Below are positions 37,694-61,314 of a DNA stretch of 64,000 nt, one piece after another. The position numbers were made by a program, and so were the translations under genes. Where the stretch lies: contig JAZLJJ010000011.1 of assembly GCA_045597325.1 (NCBI GenBank), positions 14,426 to 78,425 of the forward strand. The letters run 5' to 3'. The notes under the pieces are model-generated. The model was not told the origin of the DNA and did no database searches. It saw only the letters and a program-made list of their open reading frames with translations. Each line of letters begins with the position of its first letter. Within the stretch, counting starts at the first letter, position 1. The DNA comes from Lachnospiraceae bacterium. Its GTDB lineage: Bacteria; Bacillota; Clostridia; Lachnospirales; Lachnospiraceae.

Positions 37694-37793
37694 ACGCGGC
37701 GCCCGGAGTGCAGCGAAGCCGATTGCATTGACGAAATAAACAGCGTCCTGAGTGCAGCAAAAACGATTACATTGACGAAATAAATGCTGCATA
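37660..37793. repeat. tandem repeat, 44-46 bp x 3, re-iterating the last 11 codons plus the stop of the surface-protein gene
   Basis: Unit starts (GAGTGC) at 37660, 37706 and 37750. The units translate as WSAKKVVTVTK*, SAAKPIALTK* and SAAKTITLTK*. Confidence 0.9.
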
Positions 37794-52362: not shown

Positions 52363-53373
52363 ATGAGCAGTTGTTTTGTTCCCGAAGGCTATAAGGCCGT
52401 ATTGGGAAATCGGGAAACACAGATCGCAATTAAGAAGGTAAAGGATTATTTTCAGAGAGAACTGGCAACGCAGCTGAATCTGCATCGTGTGACGGCACCG
52501 TTGTTTGTAACACCGGAGTCCGGTCTGAACGATAACCTGAACGGTGTAGAGCGTCCGGTTGTGTTCGGAATTCGTGAAAATGATGATCACCCCGTGGAAA
52601 TCGTGCATTCTCTTGCAAAATGGAAGCGTATGGCACTGGCCAAATACGGATTCCGCGTAGGCGAAGGTCTGTATACGGATATGAATGCCATTCGCCGGGA
52701 TGAGGATACCGACAATATTCACTCCATTTTCGTGGATCAGTGGGACTGGGAAAAGGTGATTACCCGGGAGCAGAGAACGGAAGAGTATCTGAAAAAGACG
52801 GTGAAGGGTGTGTATGAAGCACTTCGCGTCACCGAAAAATATATTGCCAACCAGTATGATTATGTTGAGTGCATTTTGCCCGAGGAGATTACGTTTATTA
52901 CGTCGCAGGAACTGCTGGACCGCTATCCGGACAAGACCGCAAAGGAACGTGAATATGCGGCCGCAAAGGAATACGGAGCGGTTTTCATTATGAAAATCGG
53001 CGATTTGCTCAGCAACGGAGAACGCCATGACGGACGCGCACCGGACTATGATGACTGGCAGTTGAACGGAGATATCATGGTATATTATCCCGTCAATGAT
53101 ATTGCATTGGAATTGTCCTCCATGGGAATCCGCGTCGATGAAGAAGCGCTGCTGAGCCAGCTGGAAAAAGCCGGCTGCCCGGAACGGAAGGAAATGGAAT
53201 TCCAGAAGGCTTTGCTGGAGGGCAAACTGCCGTACACGGTCGGCGGCGGAATCGGACAGTCCCGAATCTGTATGTTCTTCCTGCGGAAGACGCATATCGG
53301 AGAAGTACAGGTTTCGGTATGGCCCGCAGCGGATGTCGAATATGCCCGCGCGCATGGTGTGGAGCTGTTATAA
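52363..53373 (+). CDS. asnA: aspartate--ammonia ligase
   Basis: RRDEDTDNIHSIFVDQWDWE and GGGIGQSRICMFFL. Confidence 0.92.
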   Translation: MSSCFVPEGYKAVLGNRETQIAIKKVKDYFQRELATQLNLHRVTAPLFVTPESGLNDNLNGVERPVVFGIRENDDHPVEIVHSLAKWKRMALAKYGFRVGEGLYTDMNAIRRDEDTDNIHSIFVDQWDWEKVITREQRTEEYLKKTVKGVYEALRVTEKYIANQYDYVECILPEEITFITSQELLDRYPDKTAKEREYAAAKEYGAVFIMKIGDLLSNGERHDGRAPDYDDWQLNGDIMVYYPVNDIALELSSMGIRVDEEALLSQLEKAGCPERKEMEFQKALLEGKLPYTVGGGIGQSRICMFFLRKTHIGEVQVSVWPAADVEYARAHGVELL

Positions 53374-53510
53374 TCGGTCCGGCGGACGTGCCAGATACCG
53401 AAACGGAAAATATGCCCGCGCGCATGGCGTGGAGCTGTTATAATCGGTCCGGCGGACGTGCCAGATACCGAAACGGAATATGCCCGCGCACATGGCGTGG
53501 AGCGGATATA
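53338..53510. repeat. tandem repeat, 68-70 bp x 2.5, re-iterating the last 11 codons, the stop and the 3' flank of asnA
   Basis: TATGCCCGCGCGCATGG(T/C)GTGGAGCTGTTATAATCGGTCCGGCGGACGTGCCAGATACCGAAACGGAA at 53341 and 53411, with a third partial unit from 53479. Confidence 0.95.
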
Positions 53511-53522
53511 GGAAAACAACGG

Positions 53523-53545
53523 GAGGCTGCTTCGGCAGCCTCTTT
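53523..53545 (+). terminator. rho-independent terminator after the asnA repeat array
   Basis: GAGGCTGC-TTCG-GCAGCCTC-TTT. Confidence 0.75.
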
Positions 53546-53568
53546 ATGGTGAAAATGGTGCAAACAAT

Positions 53569-54294
53569 ATGAAACGGGAAAGTCAGCAGAGCGAATGGAA
53601 GGACGGACTGAAAAGCGGTATCCCGATTGCGTTGGGATATTTTTTTGTGTCCTTTGCATTTGGAATTATGGGGTCGGCATCCGGCCTGCAATGGTGGGAA
53701 TCGGTTTTGATTTCCATGACAAATATGACAAGTGCCGGTCAGTTTGCCGGAGTGAAAATAATCGAACAGGGAGGTTCCGCGGCGGTGCTGGCACTGTCCC
53801 AGCTGGTGATTAATCTGAGATACTCGCTGATGGGAATTTCTCTGGCGCAGAATACGGAAGAATCGTTTTCCGGATGGAAGAGAGCACTGCTCGGATTTTG
53901 AATTACCGATGAAATATACGGCGTTTCCGTCAATCGGAAAAAGCCGGTGAGTGCAATTTATTTTCTTGGACTGGCATTCCTTCCGTGGCTTGGCTGGTCA
54001 CTCGGAACCCTTGCGGGAGCGCTGTTCGGCGATGTTATGCCGGATGCCGTGACAAAGGTGATGGGACTTGCGTTGTACGGAATGTTTATCGCGATTGTGG
54101 TTCCGGAAGTGAAACAGGATCGGAAGGTACTGATTGTAGCCGCGATTTCCGCCGCAATCAGTTGCCTGATTGCTTTCGTGCCGGTATTCCGGGCAATTTC
54201 CGCGGGAACATCGGTTATCCTTTGCGCGGTTACGGCATCGCTTCTCGGAGCATGGCTGTTTCCGCTGCCGGAGGAGAACGGAGGTGACGTATGA
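53569..54294 (+). pseudogene. azlC: azlC (branched-chain amino acid permease subunit) interrupted by one in-frame TGA at 53899-53901
   Basis: ORFs 53569..53901 and 53947..54294 are in the same frame. The read-through translation ...ALLGF*ITDEIYGVSVN... spans the conserved AzlC TDE region. Confidence 0.75.
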
Positions 54295-60156: not shown

Positions 60157-61236
60157 GTGGAAGATCGTCGTCAAAAACTGTATAAGCACTTTTTGATTTT
60201 GATGTTGCTGGTTACGTTTCTGATTTTGTTCGTAACTTTTTGCCAGTATTTTCTCATTATCAAAATCAATAAGGAATACGCGGATATTACACTGAGCAGT
60301 TTCCTGCAGTATTATGTGGAAATACCGGCGGTGATTTACGGCGTTTCGTATATCGCCATGTGTTTTATACTGGATTCGCCGAATATTGCGTACAAATGGA
60401 AAGACCTTACCACAATTTTGTATTTGTGGATTTTATGTACGGTTATCTGTTTTGTAGGAAGCTATTCGCCGTCCATTTTCGGATGTTATTGTGTTCCGAT
60501 TGTGATGTCTACGATTTACGGGCGGCGCAAACTGTGTCGAATCACAGAGTCCCTTTGCGTTGTGACGCTGACGCAGTTTATGGGAACGGCGAGACTGATT
60601 CGAACCTGTACGGAACGAAGCGGTCTGCATGTCGGAATTGCGGTTCTGTTCCTGCTTGTATTCATTTTGTGCAATGAAATTCTGCTGGAATTTGTATTGG
60701 ACAACAATGACGAGATTCAGACTCACATGGATGATAAATCCAGACTTGCGATGAAACTCCAGAGAGAGCCGATGACGGGTCTTTACAACCATACGGCATT
60801 TTACGAATACCTGAACGAGTGCGTCAAAAAACGCGGTGAATCCCCGTTGACGCTGGCGGTTGTGGATATCGATAATTTCAAGAAAATCAATGATACATAC
60901 GGACACAATAACGGAGATGAGGTCATTTTGAATCTGGCCAGAACGCTGCAGAAATGGTGTGACGACTCCAATAATTACGTATGCCGGTACGGCGGCGAAG
61001 AGTTTGCGGTCATTTTCCCGAATGTGAAGGTGAAGCAGGCAAAGGAAGCCATGGAGCACGTACTGGAGGATTTCCGAAATACCACGTACAGCTGGCTGGA
61101 CGGAAACATCACGTTCAGCTGCGGCATTTTCCAGTTAAGCTCTTATACGATGACGGCCGATGAATTCTTTAAAGTGGCGGACAAGATGCTGTACAGTGCG
61201 AAGCACAACGGAAAGAACCAGTGTGTCAGCGGCTGA
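60157..61236 (+). CDS. membrane-bound diguanylate cyclase (GGDEF)
   Basis: About 5 TM helices. TGLYNH...VDIDNFKKINDTYGH..GD...RYGGEEFAVIF (intact GGEEF). GTG start. Confidence 0.88.
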   Translation: MEDRRQKLYKHFLILMLLVTFLILFVTFCQYFLIIKINKEYADITLSSFLQYYVEIPAVIYGVSYIAMCFILDSPNIAYKWKDLTTILYLWILCTVICFVGSYSPSIFGCYCVPIVMSTIYGRRKLCRITESLCVVTLTQFMGTARLIRTCTERSGLHVGIAVLFLLVFILCNEILLEFVLDNNDEIQTHMDDKSRLAMKLQREPMTGLYNHTAFYEYLNECVKKRGESPLTLAVVDIDNFKKINDTYGHNNGDEVILNLARTLQKWCDDSNNYVCRYGGEEFAVIFPNVKVKQAKEAMEHVLEDFRNTTYSWLDGNITFSCGIFQLSSYTMTADEFFKVADKMLYSAKHNGKNQCVSG

Positions 61237-61314
61237 CCGGAAACGGAAAAGGCTGACCGGAAACGGAAACCGGCTGACCGGAAACGGAAAAAGGCTGACC
61301 GAAAACGGAAAACT
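61231..61314. repeat. tandem repeat, 20-22 bp x 4, whose first unit contains the GGDEF-gene stop codon
   Basis: GGCTGACCGGAAACGGAAAA at 61231, 61251, 61272 and 61293. TGA 61234-61236 is the stop. Confidence 0.95.

Follow-up and report, generated by a model that had tools for sequence, protein, structure and literature searches.

Why would a gene carry two and a half copies of its own end in front of its terminator? The question is raised by asnA, the gene for aspartate-ammonia ligase, in a stretch of 64,000 nt from the genome of a Lachnospiraceae bacterium (assembly GCA_045597325.1, contig JAZLJJ010000011.1, positions 14,426 to 78,425), referred to here as the window and numbered from its first letter. 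The last codons of asnA, its stop codon and a 35 nt spacer form a tandem array, which is probably a real, lineage-specific and most likely selectively neutral duplication of the variable-number tandem repeat (VNTR) or minisatellite type that came about in two steps. It is a new instance of a known process, the tandem duplication of VNTR type that is mediated by microhomology or short homology.

Structure of the array at the 3' end of asnA

Tandem Repeats Finder (TRF) reports a repeat at 53338-53510 with a period of 70, 2.5 copies, 92% matches and a score of 300, in agreement with the preliminary description of this DNA, in which the asnA 3' end, the stop codon and 35 nt were seen to be repeated 2.5 times, nearly perfectly. 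The copies are direct and stand head to tail without unique sequence between the units, with the partial third copy adjoining unit 2 (Table 1). A repeat search showed units 1 and 2 to be 99% identical, their sole difference being T at 53358 versus C at 53428, which is the single substitution reported earlier, and the sequence GAGCTGTTATAA (Glu-Leu-Leu-stop) is present in each full unit, again as described (E-L-L and a TAA stop). The junctions are unequal, as had also been noticed for the 3' junctions of units 1 and 2, and read GGAA/AATATG between units 1 and 2 and GGAA/TATG between units 2 and 3.

Unit 3 is a third copy of the first 33-35 nt (53476/79-53511) with 89% identity; 4 of 33 positions are unlike those in units 1 and 2. 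Taken together, the base differences between copies are T/C (53358/53428), G/A (53490), T/G (53504), T/A (53506) and A/G (53511). A truncated third unit had been described, and a partial third copy is indeed present, but it is not merely truncated: it carries an ending of its own, CGGATATAG (Arg-Ile-stop), and, as units 1 and 2 lengthen the sequence by 138 nt (46 whole codons), its reading frame is that of asnA. The array lies 67.7 kb into a 99.6-kb contig, away from the contig ends, and no second locus for the 70-nt unit was found in the 2.3-Mb, 80-contig genome.

The identity of asnA is supported by a full-length profile match to TIGR00669 (360 bits against a cut-off of 292.8). With the stop codon of unit 1 the C-terminus is complete, as the alignment with PDB chain 9v83_A reaches residue 335 of 336, and the AsnA relatives in the genus end in GVELL-stop or alike. 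Judged by its sequence, the AsnA protein is full length and unchanged by the array.

Comparison with relatives and polarity of the duplication

Over 3 kb of the asnA region, the sister species (G042) shows 94% identity to the window genome, which is even on both flanks of the array, with no unusually diverged tract. In G042 the asnA tail reads GTCGAG TATGCCCGCGCACATGGCGTGGAGTTGTTATAG TAGAAAATCGGGAGGCTGCTTCGGCAGCCTCTTT. A comparison of asnA 3' regions in relatives, as proposed in the preliminary description, found a single tail in all 26 of the other genus genomes aligned (G042 and 25 others), and the 2.5-unit array is seen in the window genome alone. It is unit 3 that aligns position for position with the single tail and terminator of these 26 genomes. 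In unit 3, as in G042, GCGCAC and a TAG stop are found and the terminator stem lies 8 nt away. Units 1 and 2 have in common the derived states GCGCGC and TAA. Therefore, unit 3 is, on this alignment, the ancestral asnA end, upstream of which units 1 and 2 were inserted, adding 138 nt. In line with this placement, G042-type contigs from four public metagenome runs (X3, X5, X6 and X7) have the asnA body joined directly to the unit-3 position, skipping the 138 nt. The Leu-Leu codons of unit 3, CTGTTA, are now CGGATA (Arg-Ile), and unit 1 keeps the genus-typical Leu-Leu.

This reverses the polarity implied by the title of the preliminary description, as the copy adjoining the terminator is the ancestral one (GCGCAC, TAG and junction as in G042) and units 1 and 2 are the inserted ones. 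With 4 mismatches in 33 positions between units 2 and 3, against 1 in 70 between units 1 and 2, the array has a history of two stages, the first much older than the second. The event had been called very recent, which holds for the duplicates unit 1 and unit 2, with a single base changed in 70 nt. The ongoing homogenisation that was offered with it finds no specific support, and ordinary gain and loss of units, as seen at the neighbouring array at 61230-61311, suffices. The 35 nt had been taken as the sequence downstream of asnA, but they are not ancestral downstream sequence and have no counterpart in G042 or in 31 genomes of the genus. The terminator placed downstream of the array (53523-53545) was identified correctly: a GGCTGCC...GGCAGCC hairpin between asnA and azlC is kept in most genus genomes. 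The asnA 3' untranslated regions (3'UTRs) vary widely in sequence and length across the genus.

Table 1. Features of the asnA locus and of the neighbouring array, in window coordinates.
Feature	Position	Strand	Description
asnA (aspartate-ammonia ligase), 336 aa	52363..53373	+	Ends ...EYARAHGVELL; TAA stop 53371-53373
GTTTCGGTAT in asnA	53311..53320	+	Perfect 10-nt complement of ATACCGAAAC in the spacers (53395-53404, 53465-53474)
Unit 1 (70 nt)	53339..53408	+	asnA tail 53341-53373, including the stop in use, plus spacer 53374-53408
TGTTATAAT, perfect extended -10 consensus	53366..53374	+	Formed by Leu-Leu-TAA plus T; second copy 53436-53444; read from sequence
Spacer copy 1, TCGGTCCGGCGGACGTGCCAGATACCGAAACGGAA	53374..53408	+	Copy 2 at 53444-53478; partly complementary to asnA 53311-53337
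Unit 2 (70 nt)	53409..53478	+	Untranslated tail plus spacer copy; tail copy out of frame
Unit 3 (partial, 33 nt)	53479..53511	+	...YARAHGVERI-TAG, stop 53509-11; now in the asnA 3'UTR
Terminator-like hairpin, GAGGCTGC-TTCG-GCAGCCTC, then TTT	53523..53545 (hairpin 53523-53542)	+	Between asnA and azlC
azlC-like gene	53569..54294	+	In-frame TGA 53899-53901; asnA-azlC synteny kept across the genus
Neighbouring array	61230-61311		21-nt units that open with the final codon and stop codon of a gene for a diguanylate cyclase

Proposed origin of the array

Comparison with relatives shows that the ancestral asnA ended in ...TATGCCCGCGCACATGGCGTGGAG(C/T)TGTTATAG and ran directly into the terminator hairpin, as it does in G042. 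In the older step, for which we infer the mechanism, a second 33-nt tail and the 35-nt spacer would have been placed upstream of the old tail to give the arrangement tail-spacer-tail', the spacer probably being filler from a template switch during replication. The upstream tail would from then on have been the working gene end, with Leu-Leu-stop kept by selection, and the downstream tail, being untranslated, would have drifted to Arg-Ile-TAG. In the recent step, which is suggested by the near identity of units 1 and 2 (one base in 70), the 70-nt unit would have been doubled through slipped-strand mispairing of the two tails or unequal exchange between them on sister strands, accompanied or followed by a 2-nt change in an A-run at one of the junctions. 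The outcome is the same AsnA protein and a 3'UTR that is 138 nt longer from stop to terminator.

The two copies of the spacer are identical to each other, and no counterpart was found in G042 or in the 31 genus genomes (≤3 mismatches in 26), nor a second copy elsewhere in the window genome. Searches of public collections returned chance 20-mer matches only, in unrelated coding sequences of a soil metagenome and of a Rhodocyclaceae metagenome-assembled genome. A template switch during replication is suggested as the origin of the filler because the reverse complement of the spacer partly matches the asnA segment just upstream. Ten nucleotides match perfectly (53311-20 vs 53395-404), followed by a gapped extension, and the local score between spacer and asnA segment is 12 inverted versus 7 direct. 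The inverted match has a p of ~0.001-0.005 for a pre-defined 41-nt target and of 0.03 in a wider search. Pairing of GTTTCGGTAT with ATACCGAAAC forms the base of a predicted hairpin that has the stop codon in its loop.

Other readings of the spacer were tried and rejected. A patchwork from other loci was suggested by an exact 16-mer and 15-mer on contigs C54 and C29 and by a 22-mer with 2 mismatches on C37, but such matches are not significant, because, among random 37-nt segments of the genome, 13% have a second exact 16-mer and 31% a second 15-mer. A diverged direct copy of the upstream asnA segment, or of the terminator, shows no in-register similarity by eye. A shared 3'UTR motif, ACCGAAACGGAA, with the spacer resembling the unit of the array at 61230, occurs at ~6 times its shuffled frequency, yet only 12 of 105 hits are intergenic; as this matches the 11% intergenic fraction of the genome, the abundance of the motif is put down to codon and composition bias.

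Weighing of alternative explanations

Several points weigh against the two-step duplication. The 31-mers of the asnA array occur in no public run, and the same-strain runs X1, X2 and X4 are without a contig over 53334-53720, even at 80% likeness. The 35-nt spacer could not be made by simple duplication, and no source for it was found; its likeness to inverted asnA is moderate and was noticed post hoc (the wider search applies), and the spacer, its middle especially, is far more diverged from inverted asnA than the tail copies are from one another, which misfits a single simultaneous event. We infer neutrality only, and it is faced with an RNA fold more stable than that of shuffled sequences and with two perfect extended -10 motifs. 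In addition, a search of GTDB contigs did not recover the junction pattern, and the exact AsnA protein was not encoded by any contig searched. Some of this could be turned into a case for an assembly artefact or a wrong copy number, caused by a strain mixture or by a repeat loop in the assembly graph: the 80-contig genome looks metagenome-assembled, no reads were found that cover the array, and units that differ by one base and one junction could be strain variants. On indirect grounds, an artefact is nevertheless improbable. The unit 1 to unit 2 junction, GGAAAATATG, is impossible in a single-unit genome, and GGAAAATATGCC arises only from molecules with at least two units. Each 55-mer across the array includes a distinguishing mark (a single-nucleotide polymorphism or a junction), and as the marks are ≤50 nt apart, ordinary k-mers chain a single path. 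The array is also internal to its contig, assemblers usually collapse repeats rather than expand them, and comparable arrays are present in the independently assembled sister genome. The neighbouring array at 61230-61311 is confirmed, with a difference in copy number, by three independent runs: the near-identical contigs of X1, X2 and X4 span it with one unit fewer (20 nt missing at 61251, C>A at 61271), which shows that arrays of this class are found in other assemblies too and differ there in their number of units. At this locus G042 has a single unit, followed by unrelated sequence. For the spacer, the main alternative to a template switch is a foreign asnA end imported by illegitimate recombination, an unlikely but not negligible route that would replace the first step and leave the later 70-nt duplication as it is. 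A related donor would have supplied asnA-tail-TAA-spacer, joined on the left by homology inside asnA and on the right illegitimately at the microhomology GAA, leaving the recipient tail stranded downstream (homology-facilitated illegitimate recombination). Such an import would account for a spacer that has neither a local source nor a G042 counterpart, and for the GCGCGC and TAA in the tails of units 1 and 2, which are absent from unit 3 and G042; the widely varying asnA 3'UTRs of the genus make a donor with another UTR plausible. However, no donor was found in the 31 genus genomes, GTDB representative contigs or JGI metagenome contigs, and the even identity to G042 on both sides of the array leaves no imported tract visible.

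If the array is taken as real, the longer 3'UTR might have been kept for a function, either as a stabilising or regulatory structure formed by asnA 53311-53337 and the spacer, or as a source of a small RNA that starts from the TGTTATAAT motifs, is 100-170 nt long, is ended by the asnA terminator and possibly affects read-through into azlCD. The predicted RNA fold of 53300-53560 has -107.5 kcal/mol versus -93.2 for shuffles (z = -3.0), the spacer and asnA are complementary at p ~0.001-0.03, and the two perfect extended -10 sequences compare with a weaker TGTTATAGT at the same position in G042. On the other hand, the folding energy is inflated by the repeats, no -35 element accompanies TGTTATAAT, and a sigma-70 promoter scan calls nothing in the array. 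The sole match in Rfam 15 was by chance (RF02195, 13.8 bits vs a gathering score of 40, E = 2.2). No relative carries the array, so that neither conservation nor covariation speaks for it, and the genome has ~100 other locus-specific non-coding arrays with unrelated sequences. The premature TGA in azlC makes strong selection on azlC regulation unlikely as well, and a functional element is regarded as slightly less probable still than an artefact. The least credible of the readings, at hardly any weight, is that the array is the scar or part of a specialised system, whether the attL/attR of an integrative element, a diversity-generating retroelement, a CRISPR-like array or a MIRU/REP repeat. 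The resemblance is superficial: as at integration sites, the 3' end of a gene recurs with a stop codon that replaces the original, and the layout of repeat, 35-nt spacer and repeat recalls CRISPR spacing. No integrase, reverse transcriptase or cas gene is found among the neighbours, and the unit is unique in the genome. An att duplication was rejected as the 35 nt between the repeats hold no open reading frame (ORF); a diversity-generating retroelement, as the mismatches are not confined to adenines and no reverse transcriptase lies nearby; a CRISPR array, as the two spacers are identical; and a dispersed family of the MIRU/REP kind, as the asnA unit matches itself alone in the 2.3-Mb genome.

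Relation to known systems

Tandem repeats have been reported to originate mainly by microhomology-mediated tandem duplication (MTD), which is largely neutral and depleted from coding sequence (PMC13167724; bioRxiv 10.64898/2026.02.28.708716). The two-step duplication at asnA resembles it in its head-to-tail local copies, with the terminal partial copy corresponding to the homology arm. The genome's arrays are likewise filtered from coding sequence, by the bias in their periods given below, and at the neighbouring array the copy number shifts between near-identical strains. Unlike in clean MTD, the unit contains a 35-nt spacer that lacks a single-copy precursor in G042, and the "arm" is a diverged 33-nt copy rather than a few bases of microhomology.

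Mycobacterial MIRU-VNTR loci are 40-100-bp intergenic tandem repeats, as stated in PMC5056196, which cites Supply et al. 1997 and 2000. The asnA array is similar in its unit of 40-100 bp, and in being a direct, transcription-oriented repeat between the genes of a probable operon; variation in copy number between strains is seen in this genome at the neighbouring array. MIRUs likewise overlap the stop and start codons of flanking genes, but they are one dispersed family with ~41 loci, whereas here each array has a locus-specific unit. For the spacer, the closest parallel is with the quasipalindrome or template-switch mutations reportedly studied in E. coli by the Lovett laboratory, in which templated filler is inserted during replication. 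In common with these, a short inverted copy of adjacent sequence lies beside a duplication, and the microhomologies ATA and CGAA are found at the presumed switch points; unlike these, the perfect inversion is limited to 10 nt, with strong divergence over the remainder of the spacer, so that the template-switch model is no more than suggestive. The gene-end duplications of attL/attR are similar in that a gene end is repeated with a substitute stop and the displaced original end is kept by the original terminator, and differ in that there is no element or integrase and only 35 nt lie between the repeats.

On its own, the asnA array matters little, as AsnA is unchanged, although it should be useful as a strain-typing marker. 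It calls for caution in annotation, since translation now ends at a stop other than the ancestral one, and the 3'UTR contains a pseudo gene end. It would also serve as a stepwise example of how a gene exchanges its terminal codons and stop, through duplication and then decay of the displaced copy.

The asnA-azlCD locus

The genes of the locus are a PRK13663-family gene, asnA, azlC, azlD and a GH30 gene. In seven genus genomes (G022, G015, G010, G001, G003, G005 and G046) the asnA stop overlaps the azlC start (TGATGAA or TATGAG), without a hairpin. Since several species of the genus have this overlap, asnA and azlCD probably form a single operon, and the hairpin found in the window's clade may be an internal attenuator and not a full terminator. 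The in-frame TGA of azlC corresponds to GGA (Gly) in G042, in a context that is otherwise conserved (TTT TGA ATT vs TTC GGA ATT). From this alignment, it is a nonsense mutation or a base error that is specific to the window genome, and the operon downstream of the array may be decaying.

Tandem arrays across the genome and the clade

In the whole genome (2.3 Mb), TRF detected 472 non-overlapping arrays, and 191 of them pass thresholds of a period of at least 20 nt and a match of at least 88%. Ninety of the 191 are inside long ORFs and have a period divisible by 3 in 71 cases, compared to 31 of the 101 arrays outside ORFs. Stop codons are spanned by 34 arrays, which reach 0-54 nt into the gene, and start codons by 11. 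Intergenic array density is 0.36 per kb in convergent, 0.31 in divergent and 0.49 in co-directional regions. The period bias in ORFs, the shallow reach into genes and the even intergenic density point to frequent, random short duplications that are filtered by selection. Duplications would persist only with the reading frame intact, and therefore many arrays of the genome start a few codons before a stop. A process specific to stop codons was considered and rejected, as density in divergent (5'-5') intergenic regions is about equal to that in convergent ones; that stop-spanning arrays (34) outnumber start-spanning ones (11) is better accounted for by selection together with crude start-codon calls.

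For the clade comparison, arrays with a TRF score of at least 100 were counted, in what are small samples. The 64-kb window has 13 such strong arrays, and 60 kb of syntenic sequence in G042 (C33:42001-102000) has 14, mostly at other loci, with one shared. Samples of 20 kb from three other species of the genus gave 0, 1 and 0, and 80 kb in total from four other families of the order gave none. On these counts, an excess of arrays marks the young clade made up of the window species and G042. The shared array, at 37699-37784 in the window and at L066 16580-16665 in G042, consists of 44 nt x 2 with the same consensus and lies behind a surface-protein gene. Its copies match at 83-85% in both genomes, and by this measure it appears to be older and retained, unlike the lineage-specific arrays.

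Whether the asnA array is a symptom of a lineage-specific mutator-like trait, which would yield locus-specific arrays with periods of ~15-230 nt, is doubtful. If it were true, and a change in replication or Okazaki-fragment processing raised short tandem duplication ~10x, stop-spanning arrays would keep supplying spare C-termini and new 3'UTRs. A missing repair gene was rejected as the cause, as the 5'-nuclease domain of Pol I, RecJ and XseA are present in all genus genomes that are at least 90% complete; the exception is G017, a 240-contig draft in which RecJ was not detected. The 5'-nuclease domain (PF02739) of Pol I (G000 C42:59876-62695) scores 128-148 bits throughout the genus versus 180-209 in 15 other families of the order, while the scores of the polymerase domain are equal. 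The ~60 bits are lost to two insertions of ~15-17 aa, with the catalytic metal-binding Asp/Glu kept. This divergence of Pol I runs through the whole genus, while only the window species and G042 are rich in arrays, and it therefore does not account for the array excess.

The clade-specific excess of young arrays of variable copy number is the most interesting by-product of the analysis: a small clade of gut Lachnospiraceae with ~10x more young tandem duplications than its relatives offers a natural system for the origin and turnover of bacterial repeats. A hairpin-rich element of ~128-131 nt was also observed in the genome, often as two tandem copies with 94-99% identity, at C37:31823-32082, C19:22999-23254, C68:25472-25734, C65:105591-105849, C75:44073-44312 and other sites.

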